A stretch of 64,000 nt of DNA from assembly GCA_965112155.1 (NCBI GenBank), contig OZ218098.1; one strand, given 5' to 3'. A program made the translations under genes and the position numbers. The notes under the pieces were generated by a model. The model was not told where the DNA came from and did not search any database. It saw only the letters and a list, made by a program, of their open reading frames with translations. Each line of letters begins with the position of its first letter. Position 1 is the stretch's first letter. Shown here in pieces: positions 13,547 to 54,681 of the stretch. This DNA is from Podarcis liolepis (Eukaryota).

Positions 13547-13578
<32 letters not shown>
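13547..13578. repeat. (GT)16 microsatellite
   Basis: Read directly from sequence. Confidence 0.95.
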
Positions 13579-13579
<1 letters not shown>

Positions 13580-29332: not shown

Positions 29333-29532
29333 TGTAGCTCACTGTTAGAGCATATACTTTGCATGTAGAAGGTCCCATATTCAACCCCCTATGTCTCCAG
29401 GTCCTATTGGAAGAGACTCTAATCTGAAATCCTGAGAGTTGCTTATGTACGGTGTAGACAGTACAGTACTGAACTAGATGGACCATTGACCTGATTCAGT
29501 ATATAGGGCAGCATTCTGTGTTTCCATGTCCC
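29333..29532 (+). mobile_element. Squam3-type SINE
   Basis: gtagctcactgttagagcatatactttgcatgtagaaggtccc...tactgaactagatggacc...ggcagcattc. Confidence 0.8.
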
Positions 29533-31076: not shown

Positions 31077-31280
31077 TGGGGTGGGACAGAGAGGGTAAAC
31101 TTGTGGTTTATTAATCTGTATTGGGGAAAGAAAAAAACCCAAAGGTTCCTTACACAACCCCACCCCCCTTTATTCAGAGAGGAATAAAGGGGGGTGGGGT
31201 TGTGTAAGGAACCTTTGGGTTTTTTTCTTTCCCCAATACAGATTAATAAACCACAAGTTTACCCTCTCTGTCCCACCCCA
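31077..31280. repeat. Perfect inverted repeat: 99-bp arms, 6-nt spacer (AGAGAG)
   Basis: 31077-31175 is the exact reverse complement of 31182-31280 (checked by eye, including homopolymer lengths). Confidence 0.95.
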
Positions 31281-31487
31281 TTCATGAATAGTCTACCTGC
31301 TCTCTCTTACATTATTTATTGTTGGCTACAATTATTTTTCAGTGGTGCAACTTGCAATAGCTGCAGTATGGAGTTTGTTCAGGATTTCAGCTAGCCAGCA
31401 ACACATTCTAGTATATTTTATTTCATTCCTCTCCTCTTAATAGTCAATCAGGTTTTCATGTGTATTGATCATGCTTAATCTTTTGGA

Positions 31488-32010
31488 TGGGAGAAAAGCA
31501 ATGACAAACTTAGACAGCATCTTAAAAAGCAGAGACATCACCTTGCCAACAAAGGTCCCTATAGTTAAAGCTATGGTTTTCCCAGTAGTGATGTATGGAA
31601 GTGAGAGCTGGACCATAAAGAAGGCTGATCGCAGAAGAATTGATGCTTTTGAATTATGGTGCTGGAGGAGACTATTGAGAGTCCCATGGACTGCAAGAAG
31701 ATCAAACCTATCCATTCTGAAGGAAATCAGCCCTGAGTGCTCACTGGAAGGACAGATCGTGAAGCTGAGGCTCCAATACTTTGGTCACCTCATGAGAAGA
31801 GAAGACTCCCTGGAAAAGACCCTGATGTTGGGAAAGATGGAGGGCACAAGGAGAAGGGGACAACAGAGGACGAGATGGCTGGACAGTGTTCTCGAAGCTA
31901 CCAGAATGAGTTTGACCAAACTGCGGGAGGCAGTGGAGGACAGGAGTGCCTGGCGTGCTCTGGTCCATGGGGTCACGAAGAGTCGGACACGACTAAACAA
32001 CAACAACAAC
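31488..32010 (+). mobile_element. 5'-truncated BovB (RTE clade) LINE
   Basis: Translation AMTNLDSILKSRDITLPTKV...RIDAFELWCWRRLLRVPWTARRSN...LQYFGHLMRREDSLEKTLMLGK is the BovB C-terminus. The 3' end is agtcggacacgact + (CAA)n. 11-bp TSD AATCTTTTGGA at 31477-31487 and 32011-32021. Confidence 0.95.
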
Positions 32011-34067
32011 AATCTTTTGGAGCCCTCCACCTTTAGGTATTATTAGCATTGGTATTATAATAATCAGCATTATTGCTATGGTTATCATCATTATACATTT
32101 CTGCAAGGAAGCCTTAGGGTTATACTGATGCTACTGATACCCACATCTTTGTTGGTGCTATTTTGTCTATATAAAGAGAAGGTAGTAAATAAGATAACAG
32201 ATAACATCTAATAAATACCTCTTTAACTGCAACACACACAAACCATGCACACAAACAGACACTCACCAGTTTTTTATGATCATCCTCATCAGTTCAGTTG
32301 GTGTCAAAATTAGGAAATGGCTGCATGAGTTTTACTAGTTCCAACAAGTAGAAATCCATTTACAGGAACTTTTGCTATTTTAAATGCTTTCCTAGATTTT
32401 TTAAATCTGTTTATCTAATGTTAAAGAACACGCCCCTCCCCCTACAGTCTCTTTAAATTGTAAAACCATTAATTCAGGAGCATTCCAATCTATCTCCATT
32501 CTTCACCTTGAAAGCAGAAATGAGTGATCATGTACCAAACCTGTTCCACAGAGAGATACAGAATGATTGGTTCAGCAAATTTTAGTTGCAGACATAGTTT
32601 CCTCCAATTCTCTGACGTGCTATTCTGTAGATGCTAATATTCAAGTTCATTGGGGCTTAGTTGTTTATCAGAGCTTCTCTGAAGTGCAACATTGCTGATT
32701 CCTAAGGGACAAGTGTTAAATAGTGACTTGCCTCCTTGGTCATGGTAAGTAAGAATTGCCTCTAACTGAGCAGCTGAGAAGGTTTTTGTAAATGAGAGGA
32801 CAGTGCTTTTGCTTTCTCTTCCAGCCTCTTAAATTTCCACAAATTACTTATGCTGGTATGCATTTGTAGGTGGGCTACAAAATTTCTGTGGAATTATTTA
32901 CAATAGTGTCTTAAGGTTAATTTTCCACCTTTTTAAAAAAATTGTGTGGTGACAATTGGGTGCTCCCTTTTTGTGAAGCTGATTGTTGTGTTAATAATAG
33001 TGGGAGATAATGAAATGAGATGTTTTCCTTAATGGACCATCTACTTGCAGAGCGGAATCGGTATTCTGCCAGTGGTGGGGGTGTAGATCTGGGCTATAAT
33101 TGTTAAATGAGAATGTAGGTGTGCCCCTCTCCCCCCCACTTAAAGAGGAGAAACCGTTGTTGCATTCCTTTAATGGGAGCAGGGTGGGAAGTGCAAGGTG
33201 CTTAAGTGCAAGTTGAATGTCTGAATCAATACATTTTACACTTGTACATTTTCCTTGATTTTTTTCCCTTCAATCAGCTACAGCTGAATTACTGAATACT
33301 TTAGAGGGCTCACTTCAGTAGCAAGTAGATTTAAAATGAGGTCAGTACTCATAGAGTGTAAGTCACTCTTGTGTAACCAAAGCAGATCTGTTGCTGGTTA
33401 AAGGGCTGTAATACTTGGTTAAGAAAAAGGTTGAGTTTCTTTCTTGTTGCTGTTATATTCATTTGAAGCCACCCATGCTAAATACTATAAGCAAGGCAGT
33501 ACAATAGTGAAATCCTAAGTTAGCACTGAGGTGATTTGTACATAGAAATCACAACTGTTTTAGAAGCAAGCATAAGAATTTAGATAGGAAACAAGTAGGC
33601 ATCCTCCATCTGGCTTGCAGTAATTATATAAATTAAAGCTGTGTTTCTATGGCCTGCTTTCAGATAATTTTTACTGACATAATACATACTTGATCCTCCC
33701 AGGGAACATAATCTGGCCTCATTCTGCTGAGTGATGACATCACCATATACTATGCAACATAAGCTATTTGTTAAAGCAGAACCACAGCAATCTGGTTCCC
33801 AAGCTACAAGTGCAGTGTATTATATAATAGTCTGCCACTTGAGCTGAAGAGACTGGGGTCTCTAGAGTTCATTTTGTGGATTGGCTGCTTCTGATGGATG
33901 GTAGCAAAGCAATTTGTTAATTTTGCTTCTGGTTTGTTTGCATCGTGTTTTACTTGCTTGGGTCCTTCTTTTAGTATTTTTTGTTGCCCCCCCCCAAGTC
34001 TAAACTAGCTTCCCACTATCTCTGCACAAGGACCAGATGTTAGCTGAATGAAGGTGATGCACTGTAC

Positions 34068-34246
34068 AGTAAGAGCTGTTCAACGGTGGAACAGTCTCCC
34101 TCGGGAGGCTGTGGATTTTCCTTCCTTGGAGGTTTTTAAGCAGAGGTTGAATGGCAATCTGTCATGGATGCTTTAGCTGAGTTTCCTGAATTGCCGGGAG
34201 TTGGACTAGATGACCCTTGGGGTTCCTTCTAACTCTATGATTCTGT
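34068..34246 (+). mobile_element. CR1 LINE 3' fragment
   Basis: agtaagagctgttcaacggtggaac...ttggaggtttttaagcagagg...aactctatgattctgtga. Confidence 0.85.
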
Positions 34247-37200
34247 GAAAGGGAGGTCGTCTTGTTGATTATATTTTCAAATAATTTTCTCTGTTATGCA
34301 ACTAGACTGGCCTCTGTACAGATGCAACATGTTTATGTACCTGGGTTTTGTTTTTTTAAAAAATTGCAAATGCTTTGTAGTAGCTTTTAAACACATGCCA
34401 ACCGTAAACTCACTACCTCAAAAGCCTCTCAAGGCCCTCATTGCAGTTTTCACAACTGGGAAGATTTCAGAAATGTTCCATCTCTCCAAAAAGCTACTAA
34501 ATATAAAACAAAAGTAGGATAATCATATTCTACATTAGAAAAAAGAGTTTAATTAAAGAAAAGCCGTTCCAAACCTTAATTCCAAGAGTGTCTTTGCAAT
34601 TTTAGTATTTTTTTCCTACTTCACTTTAACATTGTTAAAATGTTGATATAGTTGCATGGCTTTTAGCACTTTTTTTGTAGTTGCACTTGTAAAAGTGCCG
34701 CTTCCACAGATTGACCCAGTCAAGTGGGCACATATCGGTTAACGTGATCCTCCAAGTAAACAGGCCCTAAGCTGTAAAGGCCTTTAGGGGGGGAAATCCA
34801 AAATCTATCATAGAGAAGTTAATAACTGTGATGAGACAGCCAAGTCTAATCTACATCTGGCCTGACTGATTTTCCTTTTGTCTGATGATATGTTCCTGAT
34901 ATCCGCAGTGGAATTCAGCTTATGCATTTACTTACGTTGTAGAAATCAGCAGCAGGCTAGCCCATTCCACTACGACCAATTGCAATACAGAAACAAATGC
35001 TAGTATTTCTAAACAGCTGGAAACTCTTGTATTCACCATCTCTTGCACTAGATTATAGTGTTATGAAGCTTCAATTAGTATAATTAGGTTGACAGCTGCA
35101 CATTCACAATGAGTGAAAATCCAATTGTTGACTCTTCTGGTTTGGACTCCCAGGACCTTATTGAATTACATCAGAAGGGATGTATTTGTTAGTGATGTGA
35201 TACATTTAAAGTACTGTAGAGAAATGCTAAGCAAATAAACCATTGTTCTAGGGGCTTAAGCTCCTAACTTAATGCTAAACTCTAATTTGTGAACCTGTTC
35301 TAAACTTGTAATAAGAGCACTTTTTTTAAAAAAAAAGTAGTAAAAGCTTTGCCTGCTGACTGACTTGTAGAACTACTGTATTAGTGTTGTCTTCAATATA
35401 GAATGGTCAGAAGAAGATTTCTTAAGCTAAATGTCAAAGAGGAAAAACTTGTATAAAGATACATTTTAAGAAAGGCATGTCATGGCTTTTGTTAGGAAGT
35501 TCTCTGACTCCTTTTAACAGTTTTTTTGTATTTTTATAGATAAAGATGTAAAGTATTTTTGGTGGGGGAAATTGCCAGAAAAGGTTAAGATAAGTGTTCA
35601 CAGACACAGGTTTGAGTATGAACCCGTCAGACCTTTTATAGACTGTAGAGCTATAGCTTGGTTTAATTCAAAACTATTTGCAGTGTTTTATAATTTATGT
35701 TTATTGTGTAGATCTGTGCAAGGCATCACATTCATTTTGCCAGTCTTCCTTCTATCTTCAACTGTCGATCTTCTCATTTTTTTACTTTTCTGTCTCTGAA
35801 ACTTGCAGTAGCTGAGGGCAACATAAAGTGATAGATGTATGGTTGGCCAAAGTTAAAGAGGATAGTCCTTATATTTACTGTGTTCTGTTACATGTTTTTC
35901 CATATAAAGGGTTTTCTCCAGCAGCTTAGAATTAATACTATTTTAGATGCCTAGGTACAGGAGTAGTCACTGTGATAGGGCAGTGCTATAGAACCATGTT
36001 CCCTACAGCAGCAGCACTGCCACGTACCTGGATAATGTAGAGTTGGGGTGGCAGCAAAGTCAGGGCTGCAAAATTGCACCGATGACGCAACAATGCAATA
36101 TTCAGAGGATGGCTCCTGAATATGTATTAATGTTAAACATAGTTCCACGGTCTCAGAGCTCTTTCTCCGAGGTCAGCAGGATTTGTGGGCATGACTGATT
36201 ATAGAGCAAAGCTGAACCAGGAAGCCTCCAGACAAATTTGCATGCTTTAAATGACACCCAGTTTTCACATTGGATGGGCCTCTGAACTAGTGGGAATGGT
36301 ATGGTGGAGCGGGGGGCGGGGAGAGAATAAACTCCTGTGGCCTGTCTTTCTGTGCTAAAATCTGTTTTCCAAGTGAATAAAATATTATGATATGAACAAT
36401 CCTAATAAATAGCAGGAAGAATGAATACATAGAATCGGGAGCAAGCCACATTAAAATGAAGTCAAAGGCTATTGGAAAAAGAACTCTACAATATGATGTC
36501 AGAGGGGAGGTTAAGGAGATATCTTTGACACGAGTTCAGTCTCCCGTGGCAGCCACAAAAAGCCCTGCTCTTGTAGTGACTAACATAGACCCCAGCTGAG
36601 TAGGACTATGAATCAGAATGGCCCCAGAAGATTATCTACTCTCCATGATGGTGCTGCATTGCTAAATGTTTCCCCCTCCTCTAAATAATATGGCACATGA
36701 AGCATTTGCTAGCACATTGGTTCTGTTCTCTTAGAAACTGTGTACATGGCAGAATTTGTTCTCTGTGTTGTTTCATCATTAATATAAACACTTTCATTCA
36801 GTTTTGGCTCTTAGATCTGTCCCCTCCCCACTCTTTTAAAAACTCATTTGAGACACTAATCTTGTCCTATTGGAGCTGTCCTTGATGCTTAAACTCTCTT
36901 TTATGTACTCATTAAGCTCACTGAATTCCACTTCTGCAGAGTTATTAGCTGTCTTACTTTGTGTGTATGAAATTGCATCCTTTGTTAATTCAAACCTATA
37001 GACAGCAGCAGATCCCTGGGAAATTCTGTGTTCCAGAGATTGAGGTGGCACAATTGGTATTGCTCTCTGCTAAAACTCTTTTCCTTGAGTGTAAATCAGT
37101 GCTGTTGAGCCATTCGGTATGGTAGGCACACATCAATAGCTGTATAATTTATCTCAAGATGTGAGCTCGATTAAGTGCATAGTGTCTTTGTAAACACCTG

Positions 37201-37971
37201 CAGGGTTACTGAATAATAATAAAAAAGAATCTCTTGGAAAACCTTGAATCATCCTTGAAAACTTTGACACATCTTGTTGCATAAACATGTTTCCCTGAAA
37301 TAAGAAATCTTTGCTGGGGATACTTGTTTTTAAAAATGTTTTTTTTTGTTTGTTTGTTTGAAGAACTAGAACTACTTCCTGCCATGATATCCTCCTACAC
37401 CTTTCCTGCAATTTAGTTTGCTGACACAGAACATAGCAAATGAGTTTATACTATGGATGGGGAATCTGTGGCCCTCCAGATGTTGTTGGACTATAACTTA
37501 ACCATTGGCCCTGCTGGCTAAGGCCAGTATAAGGACAGAAGGAATTATAGTCCAACATATGGAGGGCCAAACATTCCCCATTCTTTGTTTATGCAAAGCT
37601 TGCCAATTATTTTGTCAAATTCAGTAAACAAATATTTACACAGTTTCGTAACTATTCTGCTATCTCCTATGCTGGTGGTATTGGTGGACTGGTCCCACTG
37701 GTGCTGGTGATAAATAATGGTAATATTGTAAACTGAGGTTTTCCATTCTTCCCTGTCCTCTGCTTATTCCCCATTGACAGTCTTTTTATGGATTTGGTTC
37801 ACCATGCAAGCACCTGCCTTGCCCAAATTTTATTTATTTGTGCCGCATTCAACAGCAACCTGTTTAAGAATTGCTGTTTCCTCAGTCTAGGTGGAGTGCA
37901 TGTCTTCTCATACTCCTGTTGGCTACATTTATGGGATCAGGTAGATAAAAAAAAATGGTGAGAAGAATATA

Positions 37972-38051
37972 TAGGGCGAGTCCTTTAAAAGAGGCCCCGT
38001 GGATACAGAGTACACATGTTTCACGGTGCCTCTTTTAAAAGACTCACCCTG
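37972..38051. mobile_element. 80-bp mariner-type MITE
   Basis: 30-bp TIRs (26/30 complementary), 20-bp spacer, TA on both sides. Confidence 0.8.
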
Positions 38052-38479
38052 TATTATTGCTGTTTGTGTAAGTAAGTGTAATTGAATTGGCTGAATTCTG
38101 CTGCTATCTGATCCTGCCCAATTTTACCTCCATGATGTCCATGAGAGGGTAGAAAGGGAAACTGAGTTGAGGATGTGCTATGCATTACATTTATAGTCTA
38201 CTTTTCTTTCATCATAGAACTCGAGGCAATGTGCATAGGATTCCCAAGCAGGCTCCCTTCTAAGCACTCACAAGACACAGGCCTATTAACTTCAGCAGAG
38301 TTAAAACACTGTATGCTTGTAGAGCATGTTCTATAATCAAGGGTTCTTTCCCAAGCTTCTATTGCTCCATGGTCATAGTTCTGCCTGTTGCTCATACGAG
38401 AAAGTCCATGGCCTTTTCAGTATTGGTGCTTCTATTTCTGTAGTCACACTGTGTGGGTAGCAGAAATACGGATGAGGTG

Positions 38480-39450
38480 CTGGTGTTGACCTACACAATC
38501 CTAAATGATTTTGGACCTTGCACCTCTCCCTGTGACAGCTGCCCTGTGCTTCTAGATTTATAGGTGAGCCCCTCATCTTCTTACATCACTCAGCGGATGC
38601 AGAGCGTTCTCAGTGGTGGTATCCCACTTTGGGAATTCCCTGCTCCTAGAGAGGCATGAGCAGGGCCAGTGCATTTGTCATTTGGTTTGGAAGCTGCAGC
38701 TGGTGCAAAATATGGTGGCTCAACTGCTTACTGGAGCAAGACATTGTTTTACACTGCTGTTTGAAGAATTGCACTTGCTGCCAGTTATGTGCTGAGTTAA
38801 GTTCAGCATGCTGGTTTTAGTGTAAAGAACCCTATGCTGGGACCACCAGGAAACCTGAAAGATCATCTCACCACTTATTTACCCAATTCATCAGTGCACT
38901 CTACGGATGAGGGCCTCCTGCAGATACCATCTTACCATTAGGTCTGTTCCACACAATGTAGCAATCAAGCATTTAGTGTTGTAGCACCTACTCTTGTGGA
39001 ATTATTTCCCCATGAATATAAGGTCCTGTGTCTTTTCAGGTGATATATTTCCTAGCCTGCATCACAAGGTGATATATTTCCTAGCCTGCATCTATATTGG
39101 AGTTGTTTTTAAGTTTTGTTTTGTTTTGTCGTTTGGTTGCTTGCCACCCAGGTTTCTTTTGAGAGGAACAAGGGATATAAATTTAATAAATAAATAATTT
39201 TTCCAGCACTGGGTGAAAACTCATCTGTTTGCTTTTTGGAGTTGCTATAGATTTTGTCATTACTGTAAGTTACTGCCCAGGCTGTGACTCCTTGTGTGTT
39301 TAGAGTGCTATATTTTTTTTAATCTGCTTCCATAAGTTGTGCTGAATTGGTTCTACTGCCGTGTTATTGTGCTGTTTTATTATATTGTAATCTGCCCTGG
39401 GACCATATGATGAAGGGTTGGGTAGACATTCTCTTACAAATAAAATAAAT
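38480..39450 (+). mobile_element. Cluster of degenerate L2 LINE 3' fragments
   Basis: KLQLVQNMVAQLLTG...LHLLPV motif (ORF 38613-38795) typical of the L2 ORF2 C-terminus; two (TAAA)n-type tails near 39185 and 39445. Confidence 0.7.
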
Positions 39451-40044
39451 AAATATGTTCTCAGCTCCCACAAAGCTATGTGTTTTGGTGAAAGAATGTG
39501 TCAAGGAAAGAAAACTGGTTGGCTTTGCAGCTTTCAGCAAAGAACCTGCGGTATGCAGAGAGTAATACATTTCTCCCCTTTAGATTTGTCATCTAATCTT
39601 TTACGCCTTACCTTCACTATGACCTGTATTTGTCAGATCCCCTGAGGCTAGCATTGTTAGTGAGTGTGGCGACAGCTGTGCCATGTTAATGAGTCAGTAA
39701 AATGGGACAGTTGTCTGGCTGTTGCAACTCCTGCAGAATATTTATCAGCTTTGTCATATATTTTTAAGGGCACGTGTCCTGGTGCAGCAATGGTTACTTG
39801 ATAAAAAGGGAGAAGCAAGTGCCCAAATGGCAGAAGGGAAGTTGATTAATTAGAGTATGAGATCTTGAGACCTCATCAGAATGTGTTAAACCTTAGCAAA
39901 TTTGCCTGCGTAATGCTTAATGTTTCTGAAAAACACAAATGAATTCATTACTGTGGATTTTATTACACAGGGCATTTTTAGTCTTCAGGCGCTAGCTACC
40001 AAAATAGCAGATCCATTCTTGGGTACTATATATGCACCCAAACA

Positions 40045-40220
40045 CATAAGAACATGAGAAGAGCCTGCTGGATCAGGCAGTGGCCCATCTAGTTCAGTAT
40101 CACGTTCTCACAGTGGCCAACCTGATGCCTATGGAAAACCCACAAACAGGACCCTAAGCACACGAGCGCTATCCCCTCCTATGGTTTCAAGCAACTGATA
40201 TTCAGAGGCATACTGCCTGC
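40045..40220 (-). mobile_element. L2/CR1-group LINE 3' end
   Basis: cataagaacatgagaagagcctgctggatcagg...ccatctagttcag...ctcacagtggccaac; related pieces at ~47985-48135 and ~57595-57820. Confidence 0.65.
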
Positions 40221-40512
40221 AATGGGTGGGCATTTATTTGTTGGGCATCTATATTCTTCAAGAAAAGGATCTAAACTACTGCCACATGACTGTAAGAATC
40301 CTGACAGTGGTCCAAATACTAGGATCACTTTTTAAGAACTATGTGAAAGCACTGCTCATGTGAACAAAAAGTGAAGGTTTTGCTTGCCAACAGCTGTGTT
40401 GTTTTAAGCAGTAAAAATGCACCAATAATAGATTTCCTCAAGGCACTTGGAAATGTTATTGTGTGGGTTCTTCATTATTGTACTTAGTCCATAGTCTGCA
40501 GATCAAGTGTCC

Positions 40513-41058
40513 TGATCAAGGGAAGTAATATACCTGTTCTATTCTGCCTTGGTCAGACCACACTTGGAATACTGTGTTCATTTCTGGGCTCTGCAGTTTA
40601 AGAAGGATATTGACAAGCCTGAACATATGCAGAGAAGTGAGGACAAAATGATAATGTGTCTTGAAACTAAGTCTTGTGAGTTGAGGAAGTTGGATATGTT
40701 TAGCATGGAAAAGAGGAGACTGAGAGGAGACATGATAGCCATCTTGAAGTATCTAAAGGGCCGTCACATGAAGGATGGAGCAAGCATGTTTTCTCCTGCT
40801 CTGGAGGGTAGAGCCTGAGCCAATGGATTCAAGTTACAAGAAAGAAGATTTTGACTAAACATTAGGAAGAACCTTATGATGGTAAAAGCTGTTTGATAGT
40901 CGAAAGGCTCCATTGGAAGGTGGTGGGCTCTCTGCCTTGGAGGTTTTTAAGCAGAGATTTGATTGTCACATGTCATGTATGATCTAGTTGAGATTCCTGC
41001 ATCACAGGGGGTTGGACTAGATGACCCACAGGGTCCCTTCTAACACTACAACTCTTTG
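40513..41058 (+). mobile_element. CR1 LINE 3' fragment
   Basis: LVRPHLEYCVHFW...FKKDIDK...LDMFSMEKRRLRGDMIAILKYLKG is the CR1 ORF2 C-terminus, followed by a CR1 3'UTR. Confidence 0.92.
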
Positions 41059-42083
41059 TTATTCAAGTATATGCTTTCCTTCTTTCAAACTAAACTGTTC
41101 TTCTGTTAAAGTAATCAGCATTCTGTTTAGGTGAGCAGGAGCTGTGAAAATAACATTCCACTTAGAAAGAGGCATGTGTTGTGAGGATTTGTTCATAGTT
41201 TGTATGTGTCAAGGAAGTTCTGGGAGAAAATGGACAAAGGTGAACAAGCATCAATGAAGGGAAATTAATGCCTTAATTACAATGTTCCAATGCAAGATGA
41301 ATACTTCTCATCTAAGAGCATGAACCACTGGGGTATATATGCTATGAATTCATATAATTAGTAGTTGATATTTCAAAAGCAAAGCAAAGAAAATACTTGA
41401 AATGCCACTGATGTGTATAAAGGTATAAAACTGGAAGAACCCCCTCCCCAAAGCAAAATGAAATAAGTGCAGTATTGATCAGTTCCACTTATAGTGGATG
41501 GCAGTGTTGCTAACTGTGCATTAAAAAATATTAGTTAGGATTCAAGCAGAGCCACTGCCACTGATTAGTTTTCCATTTTAAGTCAATAATGATACATATT
41601 CTAAATTAGACTAAATCCATCTGTCTTGAGGTTATGTGGTTCATGTATACCGTAGTTCACGTATAGAGAATGAATAGTTTTGCAATTATCATTACAAAAA
41701 AAGTGATGGGGGGGATATTAAACTTAAAGCAATCTTCCAAGTGTTGATCTTTACAGCAGACCTATAAAAATGCCCAGTACAAAGTAAATTATGGTTCAAG
41801 GTGTTTTAGCAAACGTTGAGGTTTCATTGTGGCTTTAATTTCAGCCTTCTATCTTACAAATCAAAATTATCTTCCCAGACAATGTTCAGGGTTGAAACCT
41901 TTGTGAAGTCACTTATGACCAATTTCCCGCCATGGAAATTCACCCCAACCCTTAATTCAGTTACTGAATATGAAAAAGTCACTGGCAGCAATTTCAGGAG
42001 TGTATTCCAGTTGATTCAAACTAAGGAATCATTTTTATTCTGTGTAGTTTTGGTTTCCTTTGTTTAGGTCTATGAGTATGGAC

Positions 42084-42351
42084 CAGGGCCAGATTTAGGT
42101 TTGATGAGGCCCTAAGCTACTGAAGGTAACGGGGCCCTTTATATAGCAGGCAGGGCCCATTACTTACATCATAGGAGCCTACACAACACAAAACACTCTA
42201 TCTGCATGTAGGTTTTATTTGTTTGTTTTTTATCTTATATTTTGGAAATGTACATCCAGTGATTTTTTTCCCTTTACATTTTTTTGTGGGGCCCCAAGAG
42301 AGCCAGGCCCTAAGCTATAGCTTGTTTAGCTTATACATAAATCCGGCACTG
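42084..42351. mobile_element. hAT-type MITE
   Basis: TIRs CAGGGCCAGATTTA / TAAATCCGGCACTG; perfect 8-bp TSD GTATGGAC (42076-42083, 42352-42359). Confidence 0.9.
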
Positions 42352-42573
42352 GTATGGACTCTCAAGCTTCTTCCATTGCAAAATCTGATGCCTCTGAACA
42401 TCCTTGCCTTGAAGATTTTAACCAAGTATGAATTGAAAAAATCTGTTCACAAAGTTGCATTTTAAGGCTGCAATCTTAAACGTTGTTACTAAGTCCCACT
42501 AAAACAATTTCCACTAAGTTTCAACTACACATGTTGAGGATCAGGTTGTGAAATTTTAAGTTGCAACACTATT

Positions 42574-42653
42574 TCATAGAATCATAGAATTGTAGAGTTG
42601 GAAGGGACCCGGGGAGCATCTAGGCCAACTCCTTACAATGCTGGAATCTCAAC
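42574..42653 (-). mobile_element. CR1 3' tail fragment
   Basis: tcatagaatcatagaattgtagagttggaagggacc (octamer tail in antisense). Confidence 0.8.
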
Positions 42654-45600
42654 AGTTTCAGGAGAATGTAAAGTCAAGGAAAATTATCAGTTGAGAAGTG
42701 CACTGAAAATGCAGCTCCTGAGAACTAGAACTTGCTTATTATGTTTATGTATGTTAGGCTAAGAGGTGATGGTATTGCCCTGTCTGCCCCAATAAATGAA
42801 ATATGATCTGCTTTAACAAGAAACTGCTGACAGAATTACTCTACAAAATTGTAAATCAAAGTATATGAGTATACTTTACATACAAGCTGTGAATTGGTTT
42901 TTCCTATGTGAGCAAAAATTCACTGTGTTCTAATATTTACCGTAGATACTGACTTGTGGGAAGTCTCTTGGTTTTCATGTCCTTCTGTGTTAAAATGAGA
43001 GGTCTGCAAGTGCATTGTATTCAAGCTTCTTTATTTGAGGAAGTAATGGTGTACAGATTTTTTGTGGCGATTACTGAGCTGGCTACCGTGTGCAGATAAG
43101 AACACGCTGCTGTACTGTGCAATCACTGGCTTTCCATCTGTAAGCTTTAGAGTTGTTGCTATAAAAGGCTAACCTCCTGCAGATATAGAGATTTTAGGTA
43201 CATGACTGCAACAGGTTCCTGACCCTGGGTCCTCTGGGCTGTCAGTCAAAGATTCATTCTATAAATTGCTACCCAGCTCTAGACCAAGAAGAAGAAGATG
43301 CACAGGAATTCACAGGTCAGGTGAGAGTCATTGACCTTGATAAAAGCTTCCAGATCCAGTTGTCTCATTGATCTGATTAACTAGGGCAGAAGTGGGTAGA
43401 CTTTCAGGTTTGTTTTAAATAGAAACTTGAGATCCACCAGCGAGAGTCAGGTTGGGGATAGTGGGTGGGTCTGAGCACATCTGAACCCAGGAATTTGTTT
43501 CTAGTAACAAAAGTGAGTTATTGATTTGTTGGCACACAAATCTGTTTCTGGTTGTACAGTAAGCTTGCTTTCTTCCAACAGCTGAATTTAGAGAGATAAT
43601 ACTTGGTTGTATTAGAAAAAAAGATATAAAAGTCGATCTTGATCTGCCTTTTGCCTGACCCTGAAAGAGGGGTCTTTGCTCCTGTTATTCCATTGCCTTA
43701 TGATTTGCCCTTAAGTTTATGGAACTCTGTTCAAACAACTCTTGCTGCCAAACAATCATTTGCATTAAATAATTAAGTAACTTTCCTAAATGGGAGGAGT
43801 CCCTTTCTAGTGTGGTGAAATGACGTTGGAAAAATTAACAAATTGCATGGAGAGTGGCCCTGTTACCTAATTGCTTAGTCATTTGGCTGTACAGTTTAAG
43901 GCTCTTTTTCAAGTTCATGTCTAAGCATTGATGCTACTTTTACACCAATCTTATTCAGTTTAATGTTGGTTCTGGATTCTTAGTCAACATGTGTGGTGAG
44001 TGTACAGCTTTTTGACATATTTAGGTTAGGTGACTGCCACAATTCAGCAGCAGTCCATTTGCAGAATGCTGTCCCAAGAGTGGCTCACCTAATGCAGACA
44101 TTGCCATCTTTTGGATGCCAGGGAAATAAGTTCTTATTTTCCCAGGCAAAAATGGCCACTGGTATTGTGTTAGTTTTTGTGATATTCCTTTGGAAGCAGG
44201 GAAGAAATAATCTGTGTTGTAATTGATCTTCATGAGTGATCTTTTTAGTGTATTGGTTTTTTAAACAGATATATTCATTACAAAAAAATTTTTGCGGCCT
44301 TGAGTTGCATCAGGACTTCAGTGTTTGTATAAAGCATTACATAAATAAATAATAATAATAGAGAGTACCCTGTGTCTAGACTTTGCAACTATCAAGAGGC
44401 AATGTATGTTGCACATGAAATTGTTTGATATCTTCTTATGGAAATTTTTGATTCTTTAAAAAAACACCATAACTTTGCTTGCAAACTGCAGGGCAAAAGG
44501 CATGAGCAACTAGAGAGTTGAGCTACAGGTCTCCCTGCATTTTATTAAAGGGTGTGCAGGAAATGTTGCCTCTTTGAGAGGACTCCTTAATATCTATTCC
44601 TGTATCTAGAGTTTCAGTCTTAACAAGGTAATTAACAGCTTGGCTTGAGTGTTGCCTCCCCTCCTCCCCTTTGACACAAATTGTAGGGATTGGAAGTTCC
44701 AGCCCCAGCTATACTTCTTGACTTACATATTATTGAACTAGTTCACCTTTTCACTTGTCAGTGCAGAGAGCAGGGTCAGGGACGGGACTTTTAAGCAATG
44801 GAATGGCAGCTAAATTATCTAGCTGCATTGGAATTATTAACTAAATGGCTACTCCAGGACAACAGGCAATCATTTTTCTCCAGGCCATTACCTCTGGATC
44901 AATTCAGATGCCATCTGAAACCATAGATTGTGAAGCTTAAATCTAAACCTTTATTACCAGTAACTTTCTATTGCAATACCTTCCTGAAGTTGTCAGTAGT
45001 TAATGCAGACTGACTTGGTCATGTGAAACTAACAGTATTGTTGGTGTAACAGCACGAATTAGAAATTATTCTTGCCAGAGATGCCAATAAATATTTTACT
45101 CTCTTTAAGTTATATCGTTTATGTAAAAATTGAAATAAGATCTTACATGAAGCATTGTTTACAGAAATGAATGAGTAGAGCTCTTGGGAGGAGGACAGCA
45201 GGAAAAGACTATGGCTAGAGGACTTGCAAGCTATGCTGATGATGAGGTACTGGAATCACAGGGTGGGGTTGGATAGTGCTAGTCACTAAGGATGTTAAAG
45301 AGTCCAACTCCGCTTCTTCAGGTTCTGCTCTAGCAACAACTAAGCTTGCCTACTCTCTCTCAGCCTCTCCCTTTCTCTGTCTCATGTTTGCAATGCACTC
45401 ATGCTGGTTTCGAAATGGCACCAATGTCCACAGCACTTTTCTGTCCAGTTAGGAATGCTGAAGCCAGCTGCACGTTGTTCTACACTTCAGTGTTTTCTTA
45501 AGTGCAGTTCATAAATGACATTTGTAAAACCTACACTTAAGTTTCCTTTAGAAACAAAGCATTTGTATTTGATGAGTTCAGTAATGGTTACTGAATAAAT

Positions 45601-46909
45601 CTTGGCTATAGATCCTGGTTAGTGAGACACAGCTTAACCATGAATCCAAGTTTGGAATACATGCTAAGCCAAACCTTGGCATAGTTCAGCAAAGCCAGGG
45701 AGTATATATTAAAAAAAGACCAGGAAGGAGCAATAAAAGTGGTTGTGAGCTTTGCTGCTCCCCAGGAGCCTCCATGTTTGCACAGTACTGGTAAGCCCTG
45801 GGTAAGCCCTGCATCAACTTTGGTCTGTACTGCTTGCTCCTAATGTAGCTATGCTTAAGATGTAAACTAATTTATATTAGCAGGTAGAAGCAACTGATTA
45901 CACTCTTAAGGAATCCTCGGGTTGGTGTAAAATTCATTCCAAACTGTGCAGTAAGTGAGCCCGGGAAGTTCTGTTTTGAGAAGAGTAGCTTTTCATCCAG
46001 CTAGTCATTAAAATCAATTTTCTTTCCTACTTGATTCAATTTTTTTCCTAAGGCAGTAAAAGATTTCTGCTTATTCCCTAAACTGTCTGGCAGTCTGGGG
46101 AGAGTGCCAGTATAGGGGAAATGGAGGAGCTCTGTTTTGTAGTTAATGATATCAGCTAGAAAAATCAGAGAGGCTGTCAAAATGGTACGCTGTTGCCAAA
46201 ACAGGTAATTCTTTAAACTTCATGTAATAGAAGATGGTAGAGTAGGGGAAGAGGAAGTAGATTCTGATCTGAAAGTTTCATTTACTCACACTCTGTGTGT
46301 GTGTGTCTGTGTATATGTTGTGATATGAGTACCTTCTAAGGACAGAAAGCAAGCCAAAATAGAGTTGTGGTATTATGTAGAATTTTAAAGTGGTCAGAGT
46401 TAAAGATATGCCTCATCAGGGCATGTCAGCGGATGCAAGGGCAGAAAAGAAAGAAAACTGTGCAGTCACATAAACCAGAGTAGCCAACACGGTGTCCTTC
46501 AGATATTGTCGGGCTAAAACTCCCATCATTCCTGACCATTGGCCATTGCCGACTGGGGCTGATGGGTGTTGGGAATTCAGCAGCACCCGGATGGCATCAT
46601 TTTGGCTGCCCAGTACAAACCATGATGGCCGCATAAAAGCCTTCTGCATGGAAGCTGTATTGCAAACTATGGATCTGTGTGAGCCTGAGTGCTGTTGAGC
46701 CATGAGCCTGGTGGCAGCCCTCCAAGGTGCCTATGTGGGGGCCCCGTTGCATCTGAACCTGGCCCATATTCAAGTGAAATGCCTTTCATTATGAGAGTAG
46801 GGAGAGGCTGTGCATTGTAGCAATTTATCTGGGTAGGAGTACAGCTATCTCTTGTTTCTGCAAGGCTGGGCAATGGTGAAGGAAGGATGTGGCAATGACT
46901 CAGCAGGCA

Positions 46910-47052
46910 AACGAATGAAGCTGCTTTGCACAGTCAGGCCATTGTTCCATCTAGCTCAGTATTATCTATGCTTAATGGCAACGGCTGTTCCAGAGTTCTG
47001 GGCCAGGGATTGAACTTGGGACATTCTGCAGGCAAGGCATGTGTTCTGCCAC
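46910..47052 (-). mobile_element. Squam3-type SINE (internally deleted)
   Basis: gaagctgcttt...ccatctagctcagtatt...gggattgaacttgggacattctgcaggcaaggcatgtgttctgcca. Confidence 0.75.
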
Positions 47053-49826
47053 ACTCCATTCTCCAAGTTGCACTGACAAAATGAGGGTAGCTTTATGGTA
47101 GGAACGACCACCCTCCCCGCCCTGCGACATATGCATTAAAGTGATTAGGTTGCTTAGAAATTAAGTAAAGTGAATCCATGAGCTGAAAGAGCTGATTGAG
47201 GGATTGAAATCAATTGGTTGAACATGCAGGAAGCAGGTTCAGAGGTGAAAACACCTTGCCATTTTGTGTAGCTGACAACCAGCTGCACTTGTGAGTTTGC
47301 TTTCCTCATATCCACATAGCGATTGTTAGGAGCTTTTGGAAGAATTAGATCAGTCTGGCAGAGAGAAAGAGTCTATAATAAATATATATCTTAATATTTT
47401 ACATTTTGGGTTAGATTGAAGTTGTATCTACCAAGCACATCTCAGGATGAGGCCACCCAAGTACTTAAAGTGCTGTTAACCAAATTTGTGGCATGTAATG
47501 TACTCTCTGCTCTGCAAATCTGCCTGCATATGATGGAAAAAAAGAGCATATTATGTCATCTGCTTCTGGTGCACTCTTCTGAAATAAATTAAATTAAGCA
47601 TCCTTTTTATATGAAATTGTTTACAGTTGGTAGAAAACATAGATGCAATTTATTTTTAGACCTGTGTAATAAGATTCTCTTTTAAATATTTATTTTGTGG
47701 AGGCGTCATGGGCAGCTCAAAGCTAAGGCTCAGTTGGCAGAAAATTGCTGTTAGTGCTTCTTTTAATCTTATGGAACAGGATCAGTTACTTTAGCAGTAG
47801 GGCTAACACTAAGGTAAACAATTGTTTTCTTTTTTATATTATATATATAGTATGCAGATTGGTAGATATTTTTAGATCTGGCCTTTGAATGGCTTTTTCT
47901 AGCCCGGGTGTAGGATTTATTAAGGAACAGCTTTTGATGGTTGATTAAAATGGACATAAGATCTTTTAAAGTCCTGTTGATTTAAGAAAAGAGGAAGAGA
48001 CTGCTGGGTGATGCCAGTGAGCTATCTAGTCCAGGAAGTCCATATGCAAGCCCTAAGTGCAGGAGTCTTCTTTCTCCTCACTTGTGGTTCCCAGCAGCAG
48101 GCATTCAGAAGCGTCCTACCTCTGCCAATGGAAGAGTTTCAGTGGGAGACTTATGCATATGGTGCATATTCCTTTTGTTGAGAAACACTTAACTTTGGCT
48201 TAATTGTATCCAAAGTTCTTAACTGTCACAGTATTTGACATGTAGATGCCATATTCTTAATTCCTGGGATTTTGAACAGAATAGTTTTCATCTGGGCCAT
48301 CTCTCTTGTTGACCTGTTGTTCCTTAAATATGTAGAGCCACTTCTGAGTAATAACTCAAGAGTCATTTTAACCATTTCAATTGAATGCTCAGTGAGCAGG
48401 AAACTAAGGTAATCACAGATTTTCCATTAACTCCAACTCAGTTGGAGTTGGAGATTTCTTACAAATTTAGCTGTGCGTTATCTCTAACAATGGCATGAAT
48501 GTGTCCTTCACTCGTTTTCAAGCCCTTGCATCTTTTTGTATTATTCTTTTGCATCTCTAACCAGTCTTCAATGTCTTTAATCTTATTGTCACTATTGTTC
48601 AGCTTTGACAACACTGTCCTATCTTGTATCACTATAATGCCTGTGGCTTTGTCTTTGATCTTCATCCTTAGAAAATAGTATATGTAGCAGTGGTGGGTGG
48701 GTTTTTTGTGTTTGGTTTTTTAAAAATCCCTGTTCCACAGATACGTGTTGTGTGGAAATAAAATGGCTTAACAAGAACTGGATGCTCAGGGCCATACAAT
48801 TTTCCTTGTTCTATATTACCATGCTGGTATTGAATCCCTTACAACCCAAGACTTAATCAGAGGTCCACAAATTATGGCTATGCTTGGTAGCTCAAGCATT
48901 AATTCCTGCTTTCCAGCTCTGAGATCCAGTCCAACCAGGTTAGTGCAACAGTAGCATTATAAATTTATAAACACAGATATGATTGAAATTATGTAAATAG
49001 GGTTTGTGTAGGCTGATTTGCTCTCCTGCCCCCTTTTAAAATTGATGTCAATTTTGGCAGGGTTGTGTTGTGGTTGTTTTCCTTTGAAAAATTTCAAGAC
49101 TGTCATGTTAGTTTAGGTAGTTGGCTTCCGTTGCTGTTTTCTGGCAAAACCATAAAATGTTGGGAAAGTGTGGAACTTGACCAGTAAAATGTTTGTTTTA
49201 ATTTTCTGTCTAATAAATGTTATAAAATGAAGGGAAGAAATTTTTTCACAAATGAGTCCCATGGCATGTTAAATACTTTTTTCCTGGAGTTTTCATAACA
49301 AGAAAAGGTGCACTTCTGAGATGAATCTACCCCCTCCCCCAAACTTTGTCACTGAAAATATCTACCCACGGCTACATGTGTTTCATAGAATTGTAAAGTT
49401 GGAAGGGACCCCATCTAGTTCAACCTTGCACTGTACTTGCTCCTCTGACTGAGAATTGATGTCCAAGATCAGGGGATGGAGTTGATTTTGTAGCTCCAAA
49501 TACACAGCATGTCTCCTGCTTTTTTGTGTTACATTCCACCAGGAATTCACTTCCTGAACTGGGCAGTCTTCCTTCTCCCTAGGGGCACTGCCCCAGCATC
49601 TCTGTTCCAGGACAGTCCACTCTGGTCTAGCAAGAATTTCCTCATCTTGTTTGTGTTTATCAGAATTCATGAAGAACCCCCCTCCCCTTTCTTATAAACC
49701 TTCATTTATTTTATTTTTATGTTATTACATTTATATTCCAACTTTCCTTCAAGGACCTCAACTTGGCGTACATGGATCTCCCCCTCTCTATTTTATCCTC
49801 ACAACCCACTACCAATCAGTATAGAC

Positions 49827-50314
49827 CAGGGGTCTGCAACCTTTAAGACAAAAAGAGCCACTTGGACCCGTTTCCGAAGCAAAAAAAACTGGGAGCTGCA
49901 AAACTCGTCATTATAAAAATAACTTTTTTGTCACTTTTTTATTATTTCTTTGTTTGACCCCTCAGAATTACTCCTCCTCATAGAAATAAATGTTAAATTA
50001 ACAAGTTACCTTTTTGTGTGTGTGTGTTCTTCACTCCCCTTCAAAACAGTGACCAGCGAACATGCCCCCTTTCAATGCAGTGACCAGCGTACATGCCCCT
50101 TACAATGTAGCGGGCGGGAAGGTGACGTCGGGATGGTGCGTGACTAATGCACGCACCGCCCCCATGAGACGTCACAGCCAGTACAGCGCCCGCCACAGTG
50201 GGGAGTGTCGGGGCGCACAATGTGCCTCCTCCCCTTGCTAGTATCCACCCCGAGCCGTGGCAAAGGTGTAAAAGAGCCACATGTGGCTCCGGAGCCGCGG
50301 GTTGCTGACCCCTG
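49827..50314. mobile_element. hAT-type MITE (488 bp) inserted in a Squam3 SINE 3' half
   Basis: TIRs CAGGGGTCTGCAACC / GGTTGCTGACCCCTG (14/15); duplicated target (G)TATAGAC. The flanks rejoin to ccaatcagtatagacaataatgtgttagatggg...aggcagcttcctatgttcct. Confidence 0.88.
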
Positions 50315-51328
50315 TATAGACAATAATGTGTTAGATGGGCTTATAGTCTGACTTTGTATAAGGCAGCTTCCTATGTTCCTTAGGGCGATAAAACAGAATT
50401 TATTTACCTTTCTTCCTCGGTTCTTTATTTTAAGTTCTCACAAGAGTTGATCGGTTTGCGAGGCTCATGATGAGTTTTAATTGCCATATTACCATGCTCT
50501 GAAGAAAACATTGGCTCCAAATTCATTTGGGCAGGTGGTTAAGCAAATCAAGAGCAGCAGGGAAAAAGGGGGTTCAAGTAGCTCCACTGTGACTATCATA
50601 TAACTGTCTCTGGGAGTTATTGTGAGGCTTTTGTCTACACACATCATAGCCCAACAAATTTAACTTTTCCCCAGGAGCTATATCAGTTTGGTAACTATAC
50701 AGATACCCAGCTGTGTCTCAGACATATGCCATGTTATGCTGTCAAGCTGATTATAATTATTACTTTAAATGAAATTTGGGGTATTTGTTTAGAACCTTAG
50801 TGGAGTATTGTTTATATCATGAACAAAACTCACAGAACTGTCAGTAGTTGTAGGACCGCTTTCCACATCAACATGTATGTTGAGGAGCTACTTTATCCTA
50901 CGAAGAGTTCTGGAAGTGTTCAGTATGTTGAAGGAAAAGTATACCTTGGAAAAGTTTGTCCCCATGGGTAAACCCCTGATAGCTACTGCAAATCTCAGTG
51001 TTTCCTGGCACACTTGAAAACAATTGTTATCCAGGGAGCCATAAATTTCGGCTTGGTAGCCAAACATCTTTTCCAGAAGCCAGCAAGTCTGACTTACCTA
51101 TTTCTTGGTCCACAGATAAGTGCATCACTTCTGCAGCCTTTTCCCTTGGTGAGGTGGAGTTAGTGGGAAGAAGTGGCAGGCAGGCTGAAAAGTGTGTTGC
51201 CAGCAACACATTCCCTCTAATCCATGACATTGCGTCACAGCAGAAGTTGCAGGCCATTCCCATCTTCATTCTTTGCTTTCCTGCATTGCCGGATGATGGG
51301 AAGACTCCATGTTTGCACCTTTCAGCAG

Positions 51329-51355
51329 AGTAGTAGTAGTAGTAGTAGTAGTAGT
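51329..51355. repeat. (AGT)9 microsatellite
   Basis: Read directly from sequence. Confidence 0.95.
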
Positions 51356-53029
51356 TGGTGAGTGTTGGAGCAATATTATAAAACACCTCACAAAAAGCCT
51401 TATGATTTCCATATCACAGATGGGACCTACTAGACCAAATTAGTTTTTGCAGATCCAGAACAAGGCATTGTAACCCTACTTGAATTTCACACGGAAAATC
51501 ATGAAACTACAATCCCCACTGAGATGACATCCTGGAAATAGGAATCACTTGCCCTCAAGCCAGTTTCTGCCAACTCTTCAAATCTAGAAGACAAAGGGAG
51601 AACATTTGGGGCAGATGTTTTTCGGGGGCAGTTCAAGGGGCATTCCTGCCTATTATTCTGTTATTGTTATTATTACTGGCCAATTAAATGCTGACCATAA
51701 GTTTGGGAAGATTCTGTTCAGACTTTGTAAACAGGATATTAAATAGTGAGAGGCTCTGGAGCGCCTGTTGTTTTAAAGCCTCCATTTGTCTTCACGCAAA
51801 TGATGATTCAGGGACAAGCAAAGAAAAAAGAAAAATGGTTGATCACAACATGAGAAAAGTGTCTGCTGATGGATTCATTTCTGTGGGACTAAGCTATGTA
51901 AGATGGCATGCTTGACAGAAAGTTGGAGAGGTTTCAAGATGCTCAGTGCAACCAAGGACTCCTGTATCTGTTAGAATCATGGGTGGTTGCCACAGGCCTG
52001 TTCAGCAGCACTCCAAGCACAAAGGAGACTTCTCCCCGCCCCCCACCCTGAAAATAGAACTACATCGCTTGCTCAAGGTTAAAAGTGATTTCATGTTGCA
52101 TTATCTTAACGTCTACCCTTGTCAGTTCTCATACATGTCTGTTTAGGAGGGAGGAAGTGTGTGTGCATGAAAGGTATAGACCCTAGCACTCAGAGCTTAG
52201 CCTCCTTCAGTCCATCTGCCTCTCATCTCTCTGCATAGTATATTTTTAATCATTTACAGTAGAGGTTTTTGTTAGAAAGTGTGAAGTGGCAGATATCACC
52301 GTATAAAGGAGGATTACCATCTGACATTAAGAAGGGAAGGACTTCAGCATGTAACATTGCAAGAGCAGCCTGAGAAGAATGGAGTGTGACTATATGAGGG
52401 CTGTCCATGCAGAGATGTGGGAGAACAGCTGTTTTTATGATGTATAGGTGGGGGAACAGGATTGACCCAAGATCTCTTCTTTATTTTCTGTATTTGAGAG
52501 CATTTCTAGATCGCTTAATCTTGCAGCCTGAGGTGAAGCAGCAAATGGTTTTCTCCCCACCCCTGCCCTTGCACCTTGGGACTCCAGGTGCAAGTTGCTT
52601 TGGCAGCTGAGGCAGGAAATCCCGCAAGTACCTCTCCCTCTCCTTGCAGTAAAAAATATAATAACAACTATCAATTTGTTGCACTTTGGTGACATCTGAA
52701 GTCATCAGCTGGATGCCGCCGTCTCCGCCAAGAGGACTGACAATAAACCATCCTACTAATCTTATATAAGCAAATGATTAACAAAATGTGAACTAATTAT
52801 TCGTGGAAGTCACTCATTGATTTTAGGCTGTGCGTGTTCTTTGAAAAGATAAGCTTAAACTATATTTCCATTATATCACAGGATGAAACTGGAAACAACT
52901 TTCTTTTCCAAATTATCTACACCATTCTTCCCCAGCCTTAGGTCTCCACATACTGTTCAGCCACGACTTCTGTCATCACTGACCATTGACCCGTTGGCTA
53001 AGGATGGTGTGGGGATGTGCATGTAGCAA

Positions 53030-53990
53030 CACTGTGGCTGTGCGTGGATGCATAAATTGTGCTTGAATACTTCTGTTAGGGGAGAGTATTCTGTCCCCTT
53101 TGGTAGGGGTCACATCCTGCTCCTTCTGGGATAGATTGTCCCACCTTTGGTCCCCACCCTGCACTCAGCTCTCACCTGTGGCTCCTAGAACCTGTCAGCC
53201 TGAAACAGCAGCCATAACCTGGCAAAACCAGCAGTAAACAGCGTTTCCGTGCGCTCTGGCACCCATCATGGTGTTCCGTGTGCCAGAAGCAATTTAGTCA
53301 TGCTTGGCCACATGACCTGGAAAAGCTTTCTGCAGACAAATCGCCAGCTCCCTCAGCCTGAAAGTGGAGATGAGTGCCGTACTCCATAGTCAGATTCAAC
53401 TGGACTTAACTGTCCAGGGGTCCTTTACCTTTTAAACCAGGCTGGCTGAACCAGGTGAAGGTAGCTGATGGGTCTCAAACACTCAGTGAGTTAGGGACTT
53501 CCCCTGTATGCAAAGACAGGCTCTGGAGGATTGAGTGGAAGAGACCAGTAGTGGATCCAGTGGTCAAGAAGGCAGTTTCTGCACGTGCTATAGAGGGAAT
53601 TGAAGGGCAACCTGGAAATCTCAGATAAGGAAGACTCTGATCCTAAACTTCTGCTGCTTTGCAGGATATATTCAGGAGAACAAAAGGCTAAGGCGTAAAC
53701 TCTACACAAATCCAGCATGGCAACCCCAAGACTGTTGGATGGCGCCTTGTATGCCTCCTTCCAGAACTTCTGCGGCCAAGCTGGTGCCAAATGTATTGCT
53801 CTGTTTTCCTTTAAACCACATTGGCAAGGCCAAGAGGGGGATCTTGTCATCTGGGCAGCCCAGCACCTCCATACACACTGCCCATGCTTTCGCCCCAGGG
53901 TGGTCACTGAGGTGCTGCTAACACAGCAGTTTGATTTTACCTCCTGGAAGCATACTCCATTGTCTCTTGAGACAGATGGATGCTAACAGC
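53030..53990 (+). mobile_element. Probable non-autonomous RTE-clade retroposon, interrupted by a Sauria SINE fragment
   Basis: Higher-GC block ending ccattgtctcttgagacagatggatgctaac, which resembles squamate RTE 3' ends as I recall them; no RT ORF; boundaries approximate. Confidence 0.45.
53233..53432 (+). mobile_element. Sauria SINE (Squam1) 3' fragment
   Basis: gtaaacagcgtttccgtgcgct...ttagtcatgcttggccacatgacc...gggtcctttaccttt; aaaccag flanks both sides. Confidence 0.85.
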
Positions 53991-54284
53991 TCTTCTGTCC
54001 CAAATGTAATGTCTTGCACATTAACTATAGGACATCAGGTGATAAGGTCAGCCCAGGGACCATATCTGTTAAAGACACATTTCTTGATCCATTCCCAAAT
54101 GTATCTTGGACTCTATGGTCACTTGTGTCATAAAATATTGATTCATGACAATTTACCAAGAAAGCACATTGTCCTGCTTTCCAAGGCTGGCAATGGGGAA
54201 TTATAAAAATGAAAACAACTTTGAAGAGTTTTGGTGGGTATTTTTGCTACTCTAAATTACCATATGTTTCCTTTTCTCTTGCAG

Positions 54285-54440
54285 CAGCAGGATGGAGTTG
54301 AATAGCAACAATATGTTGACTAAGGAGCCAGAGTGAGTAGCACCGGAATTTTGATTGTTACCTGCCTGGACTATGAACTGAGACATTGGCGTGGACTTTT
54401 CAAACCTTTTCCAGTTGACTCCAGAGCTGGTTGAACAGCC
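54285..54440 (+). other. MGAT5: 5'UTR part of the first coding exon of MGAT5, with a tandem CAGCAGCAG splice acceptor and two uORFs
   Basis: Polypyrimidine tract tttccttttctcttgcag with AG at 54283-54284, further AGs at 54286-87 and 54289-90, and a branch-like ctctaaat near 54250-54257. uORFs at 54292-54336 and 54373-54381. Confidence 0.85.
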
Positions 54441-54681
54441 ATGGCATTTTTTACTCCATGGAAGTTGTCCTCTCAGAAACTTGGCTTTTTTCTGGTGACC
54501 TTTGGCTTCATTTGGGGAATGATGCTGCTGCATTTTACAATCCAACAGAAGACTCAGCACGAAAGCAGTTCGGTGCTTCGTGAACAAATACTGGACCTCA
54601 GCAAAAGATACATAAAAGCACTGGCGGAAGAGAATAGGAATGTGGTAGATGGACCATATGTTGGTACGATGACTGCGTATG
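54441..54681 (+). CDS. MGAT5: MGAT5 (alpha-1,6-mannosylglycoprotein 6-beta-N-acetylglucosaminyltransferase A, GnT-V), first coding exon (80 codons + 1 nt); gene continues beyond the window
   Basis: Translation MAFFTPWKLSSQKLGFFLVTFGFIWGMMLLHFTIQQKTQHESSSVLREQILDLSKRYIKALAEENRNVVDGPYVGTMTAY matches the recognisable vertebrate MGAT5 N-terminus (cytoplasmic tail, type II TM anchor, stem). Kozak context is gccATGG. The exon ends at a canonical phase-1 donor G|GTAAGT (GT at 54682-54683). Confidence 0.97.

Follow-up and report, generated by a model that had tools for sequence, protein, structure and literature searches.

A conserved 14-codon upstream ORF behind a tandem splice acceptor in the lizard MGAT5 leader: a translated mammalian element and a candidate brake in cis

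MGAT5 sets the β-1,6 branching of N-glycans, with consequences for receptor signalling, T-cell thresholds and metastasis, and is limited by the supply of UDP-GlcNAc. Its human 5′ untranslated region (5′ UTR) holds a short upstream open reading frame (uORF) that is already known and stands in two catalogues as ENST00000409645_115_157 (supplementary file 5 of PMC10032668; supplementary file 10 of PMC4568590). The first-pass annotation of the lizard DNA studied here pointed to an equally long human ORF at the equivalent site, and proposed to look for footprints on it and for conservation of its start and stop; such an ORF does exist, mammals translate it, and its conservation extends to birds. 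By its flags it is one of 831 novel conserved human small ORFs, with 14 amino acids (aa), a phyloCSF score of 17.68 (length-adjusted, 1.075), SVM-predicted coding conservation and a predicted disorder of 0.94 for the peptide; both start and stop are preserved in 32 listed species, among them wallaby, opossum, chicken and zebra finch, and the list contains no lizard, platypus, frog or fish (PMC4568590). The name ‘mgat5’ is absent from supplementary files 11 and 12 of that study, which, judging by file order, are those for mouse and zebrafish. The other catalogue places the uORF among 221 translated ORFs of 3–15 aa, with 2,026 P-sites in human heart, 70.5% of them in frame (barely past the cut-off of 70%), and with P-sites in 4/4 mouse and 2/2 rat tissues, the rodent uORF being 15 aa long; its structure is scored ‘vertebrata’, as for 36 of the 221, by a lenient criterion that asks where the ATG lies and whether the frame is open (PMC10032668). 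Translation of the uORF has thus been shown, by others, for human, mouse and rat. The same work cautions that short 5′ UTR ORFs persist partly through location and shortness, and its main text gives no match to the gene name (PMC10032668). A search of the open-licence literature found no study or functional test (reporter or knock-in) of the MGAT5 uORF.

Other described leaders resemble that of MGAT5 in part. The sequence-independent repressive, DAP5-assisted leaders, exemplified by WNK1 (PMC9726905), share with it a GC-rich leader of at least 478 nucleotides (nt) with several upstream AUGs, a main ORF that would depend on leaky scanning or re-initiation, and a translation efficiency that drops without DAP5; MGAT5 nevertheless lies under the target threshold (log2 change of −0.72 versus −2.60 for WNK1), and its uORF peptide is partly conserved. 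The conserved-peptide uORFs of animal genes such as PTP4A1, FAM13B, MKKS, SLC6A8 and the metabolite-gated AZIN1 (PMC7530721) likewise have conserved C-terminal residues beside the stop, from mammals to birds. Unlike them, the MGAT5 peptide is a candidate for stalling only; the conservation across distant taxa that marks this class is found among amniote-like sequences, but the peptide is not kept in teleost-like ones. The leaders of ATF4 and of the glycosylation-related SLC35A4 (PMC4341466) also carry translated uORFs before the main ORF, but MGAT5 differs from them in showing no induction by tunicamycin and in a basal efficiency about six times that of ATF4.

We analysed a stretch of 64,000 nt from Podarcis liolepis (contig OZ218098.1; hereafter the window), the features of which are listed in Table 1. 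The ORF from 54441 matches Pfam MGT5A_N (E = 1.3e-40), and 80/80 of its residues are identical to those of named lizard MGAT5 proteins; the next MGAT5 exon lies outside the window. An N-terminal extension of MGAT5 was ruled out for this lizard, the main frame being closed two codons before the ATG. A metagenome scan for MGAT5 exon DNA gave 1 of 539 candidate stretches, with 43% identity over 42 residues, which is not an orthologous locus.

Table 1. Features of the MGAT5 leader and their positions in the window
Feature	Position	Strand	Description
MGAT5 exon 1	6943..7264	+	CpG island of 76% GC; 3′ end shown, 5′ end (at or before 6943) inferred
Exon-1 ATG, 13 codons and 2 nt of the probable extended uORF	7224..7264	+	A at −3, G at +4
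Intron 1	7265..54284	+	47,020 nt, GT..AG
Acceptor region	54252..54290	+	Branch-point-like CTAA (54252), pyrimidine tract, three tandem CAG acceptors
14-codon uORF in MGAT5 leader	54292..54336	+	From sequence; orthologous to the catalogued human MGAT5 uORF
Two-codon second uORF	54373..54381	+	A at −3; ATG 68 nt before the main ATG
MGAT5 first coding part	54441..54681	+	80 codons and 1 nt; main ATG with G at both −3 and +4; donor follows at 54682

The geometry given in the first-pass annotation was confirmed from the sequence: the ATG at 54292, whose context has A at −3 and G at +4, opens 14 sense codons that end in TGA (54334–54336), 104 nt before the MGAT5 ATG and in another frame, with 149 nt between the two ATGs. 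A further in-frame ATG lies inside the uORF at 54313. Strong-context ATGs with a closed ORF of at least 10 codons occur in 26 of the 410 tiles of 156 nt that make up the whole window, so the uORF on its own is no rarity. Its likeness to the human-type peptide, by contrast, is beyond chance: the two have the same length and 8/14 identical residues, and none of 604 other ATG-started open 14-codon stretches in the window reaches 7/13, the best having 4. Two marks of orthology with the human uORF are thus present in the lizard sequence, the place in the first coding exon directly behind the acceptor, and the same length with a likeness above chance. Gene, exon, codon number and C-terminal motif are shared, and the human uORF starts 7 nt into its annotated exon, as the lizard one does when the first acceptor is used. 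The human-type copy (P0137) differs in being in frame with MGAT5, with 93 nt from stop to start, and the lizard has an in-frame ATG in exon 1, which annotated human transcripts lack under a most-upstream-AUG rule. A search of the leader against Rfam found no family, and among 16 leader windows that were folded the lowest z-scores, −2.7 (7123–7202) and −2.5 (54353–54432), are unconvincing given 16 tries.

Relatives of the uORF could be read from predicted proteins that run through the leader. The search gave 230 MGAT5 protein matches, and among the best 120, which were examined, 14 have N-terminal extensions: four leader read-throughs, eight proteins that are teleost-like by their N-terminus and two unrelated ones. 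The read-throughs are reptile-like (P0002 and P0003) and mammal-like (P0045 and P0058), and a W stands at the uORF stop. We read this W as a TGA passed by the gene caller, which is certain only for the human-type peptide, and the leader structure of all relatives is deduced from such protein translations. Members of the clusters gave variants, and one of them, P0137, carries the exact human peptide. The resulting table holds eight uORF sequences, the window and seven others, from five lineages. Length is 14 in 8/8. All eight share M1, L9, E12 and P13, while E2, N7 and E14 are present in 7/8. Identity to the window is 10/14 for P0003, 9/14 for P0002, 8/14 for P0137 and 7/14 for P0045. Codon 10 varies between Thr, Met and Ser, and P0003 has Ala as its final residue.

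As a control for uORF likeness, the non-coding spacer was read in the same frame. The last six residues are identical at three to five positions in all six amniote-like pairs, against 19–46% in the spacer, and residues 2–8 have only 0–2/7 in common in five of the six pairs. Taken whole, the uORF exceeds the spacer background in five of the six pairs, among them the mammal-like one (10/13 versus 9/31); the exception is the reptile-like pair, in which the uORF is no more alike than the spacer (5/13 versus 16/35). As judged from these comparisons, the conserved half of the peptide is its C-terminal half. The first-pass suggestion of conservation across amniotes, down to an LT-x-EPE ending, holds in amniote-like sequences for the length and for a C-terminal L-x-x-E-P, and teleost-like sequences keep the position alone. 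A profile of uORF plus spacer recovered only its four input proteins, and against 1.84 billion representatives the same profile found P0003 and, apart from it, just two repetitive proteins that are unrelated.

The frame relation to MGAT5 is not part of what is kept. The distance between the ATGs, 149 nt in the window, is 150, 153 and 138 nt in relatives (only in-frame cases are visible in translations); because these distances differ, the frame seems to vary freely among species, and the out-of-frame arrangement to which the first-pass annotation drew attention is not conserved. A second ATG is spellable in P0002 and P0003 at −68, its place in the window too, and in the two mammal-like clusters at −62, a placement that comes from translations in which the third codon position is not fixed. 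The position and frame of the ATG of the two-codon uORF (distance modulo 3 of 2) are compatible with all four relative clusters. P0002 and P0003 also have an extra in-frame Met behind the uORF stop, 105 nt before the main start, that is absent in the window.

In teleost-like proteins, a tandem acceptor followed by an ATG is spellable 72–81 codons before the main start in four of eight; of the remainder, two fit loosely, one begins later and one does not fit. P0102 and P0109 could encode an ORF of 12 codons followed by one of 11, with peptides unrelated to the amniote one. Because teleost-like sequences keep the ATG site but not the peptide, the position appears to be older than the peptide. 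A second, Arg/Lys-rich ORF of 11 codons, about 64 codons before the MGAT5 start, is seemingly conserved among the teleost-like P0099, P0102 and P0109. A tandem acceptor ahead of the uORF ATG is spellable in mammal-like as well as teleost-like relatives.

We aligned four of 24 listed sequencing runs (X1, X5, X14 and X23) to the window; X23 is recorded as RNA, and we guess the same of the other three. X1 and X23 come from one organism, which may be another species although X1 is at least 99% alike to the window, and X5 comes from a second organism. A contig from X1 splices the exon start at 54285 onto sequence equal to 7234–7263 of the window, where a GT donor follows at 7265, and three raw X23 reads have the same joint, with agreement over the last ~23 nt upstream of it; the acceptor before 54285 is therefore used in both runs. 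The X1 contig has 321 letters upstream of the joint, of which 30 were compared with the window. Exon 1 falls in the only CpG island of the window (observed/expected CpG of 0.84), which is confined to 6001–8000. The first coding exon ends at 54681 in 4/4 runs. A rough scan of intron 1 found no cassette exon. There are hints of alternative 5′ exons, in pyrimidine-rich acceptor-like sites at 6760–6842, 5′ of exon 1, and in a second donor-like site, GTAAG, at 7982.

The sole ATG within 6943–7264, at 7224, probably lies in the mRNA; it stands 10 nt beyond the 30 compared letters of X1. It is in frame with 54292 under all three acceptors and would give uORFs of 30, 29 or 28 codons. Because this ATG is in frame, in strong context and 16 codons further 5′, 54292 is likely to be an internal start in the lizard, the middle one of three in-frame ATGs (7224, 54292 and 54313) in a uORF that likely has 28–30 codons. 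A protein search with the exon-1 frame (40 aa) matched no protein of 22–70 aa. The tandem acceptors end at 54284, 54287 and 54290, so that the exon may start at 54285, 54288 or 54291, and the −3 A and −2 G of the uORF ATG are the AG of the third. The strong-context 14-codon ORF noted in the first pass is real in the sequence, but exon 1 probably holds the start of the lizard uORF, and the −3 A is part of the acceptor. Splicing at the last acceptor would put T in place of this A, and the strength of the uORF could in this way depend on which acceptor is chosen; a search of the open-licence literature found no study of acceptor choice tuning uORF strength. The X5 contig starts at 54290, which would be compatible with a fork from the last acceptor, but no joint is seen in it; in the same run codon 10 changes from Thr to Ser (a single contig, depth 11). 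X14 does not cover the uORF.

We propose, with a probability of roughly 50%, that this lizard copy of a uORF translated in mammals acts as a constitutive brake in cis on MGAT5. Most scanning ribosomes would be caught by the strong start that immediately follows the splice joint, leaving the synthesis of MGAT5 to those that leak past it or re-initiate. Four upstream AUGs would precede the MGAT5 start in the lizard, two of them in optimal context; ribosomes there would mostly start at 7224 and make a product of 28–30 codons, the extension yielding a longer uORF, and longer uORFs inhibit re-initiation more (PMC9726905). Re-initiation would then have to proceed over ~100 nt and past the second upstream AUG, with modest help from DAP5 for the main ORF, and starting and stopping on the uORF would matter more than its peptide. 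Several observations argue for this brake. Position, rather than peptide, appears to have been kept longest, and the lizard lineage seems to tolerate both an N-terminal extension of 14–16 codons that is absent in annotated human transcripts and the Thr-to-Ser change at codon 10 in X5. In DAP5-null cells the translation efficiency of MGAT5 falls (log2 −0.72, adjusted P = 0.009), a direction that fits, although MGAT5 misses the cut-off for DAP5 targets (FDR < 0.005; it is marked ‘no’) and the drop comes mostly from a rise in mRNA (+0.49), the change in footprints (−0.21) not being significant (PMC9726905). In HEK293T cells the rough footprint-to-mRNA ratio of MGAT5 is 0.19, below the median of 0.30 of its neighbours in the table, 12 of 49 of which are lower still, and ATF4 has 0.03 (rows of PMC4341466). 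An efficiency about sixfold that of ATF4 means that any brake is mild. Both the repression of MGAT5 by the uORF and the help of DAP5 to the main ORF are inferred.

A purely sequence-independent brake would have no need of a conserved C-terminal half or a positive phyloCSF score. In a second reading, less probable but to be taken seriously, the C-terminal L-x-x-E-P-E constitutively slows elongation or termination, and ribosomes that stall there keep others from scanning on to MGAT5. The invariance of L9, E12 and P13 at a length of 14 in 8/8 sequences from five lineages would fit such a peptide, as would the excess of the mammal-like pair over its spacer and the SVM-predicted coding conservation (PMC4568590). 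There is precedent as well, since, of 17 human uORFs selected by the conservation of their C-termini, MGAT5 not being among them, 8 repress in a sequence-dependent manner (PMC7530721). Yet the reptile-like pair is at spacer level, codon 10 is variable and P0003 ends in Ala; the uORF has 15 aa in rodents (PMC10032668), has no entry in files 11 and 12 of PMC4568590 and finds an unrelated peptide in teleost-like sequences; and merely 14 residues would lie within the exit tunnel in mammals. It is very unlikely that such stalling is gated by UDP-GlcNAc or another compound of the hexosamine pathway, so as to couple MGAT5 synthesis to donor supply. Besides the conserved C-terminus, it has a precedent in the uORFs that stall on polyamine, arginine or sucrose (PMC7530721). 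However, 1 h of tunicamycin left MGAT5 footprints at log2 +0.11 against +3.35 for ATF4 (PMC4341466; normalised on 49 of 59 other genes of one table page after dropping 10 low-count or multi-copy rows, with the treatment columns deduced from ATF4), and MGAT5 is absent from the changed-gene lists of that paper, so that stress induction of the ATF4 type is not seen for MGAT5 in these data. Mgat5 efficiency was likewise not significantly changed in 4/4 contrasts of oxygen–glucose deprivation of up to 60 min (0.82–1.09-fold; PMC4419486), both treatments being short and indirect rather than GlcNAc titrations. Control by ER stress or metabolites, raised in the first pass, has so far not been borne out, and we give equally little credence to the composite idea that L-x-x-E-P-E senses hexosamine flux and sets MGAT5 synthesis while acceptor choice rewrites the −3 base to tune its strength; if true, it would tie N-glycan branching to UDP-GlcNAc supply directly at the level of translation.

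Another account, which we consider improbable, holds that the ORF is a by-product of splicing: the tandem acceptor itself would supply the context of the ATG, the purine-rich 3′ end would act as an exonic splicing enhancer for a 47-kb intron, and translation, though it occurs, would not be the target of selection. That the −3 A and −2 G are an acceptor AG, that purine-rich words are concentrated at 54324–54333, at the 3′ end of the uORF, and that location and shortness can preserve such ORFs (PMC10032668) would all agree with it. It leaves unexplained the fixed length and stop in amniotes, the positive phyloCSF and the ATG kept in teleost-like sequences. Upstream AUGs, moreover, are as a rule selected against. 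Least probable in our estimate is a trans-acting micropeptide, another first-pass idea. The positive phyloCSF (PMC4568590) and seven partners besides itself in a peptide-array pull-down (RBM15, MPHOSPH10, SDC4, USP9X, NAA50, SNU13 and another small ORF; PMC10032668) could be taken to favour it, but the partners do not add up to an obvious pathway and include no glycosylation protein, the peptide is predicted to be largely disordered, its N-terminal half drifts freely, and three mass spectrometry approaches (shotgun, HLA and targeted) failed to detect it (PMC10032668).

The uORF is real and conserved, which will not surprise a specialist. As the element is already catalogued, the news is modest: a reptile data point, a likely lineage-specific extension into exon 1, a frame relation that appears free, a second upstream AUG that seems conserved, a start context encoded by the overlapping acceptor, and a positional conservation that would reach deeper than the peptide. 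With a position that would date from before the fish–tetrapod split and heavy translation in mammals, the uORF could plausibly control MGAT5 dose, and in a medically relevant gene, variants of the leader could matter in people. Intron 1 also contains a tRNA-Asn(GTT) gene or tRNA-derived copy at 27611–27684 (Rfam, 51.6 bits; called by ARAGORN as well), and a weaker tRNA-like match in intron 2 at 56155–56225 (34.6 bits, no ARAGORN call) is probably the head of a tRNA-derived repeat.
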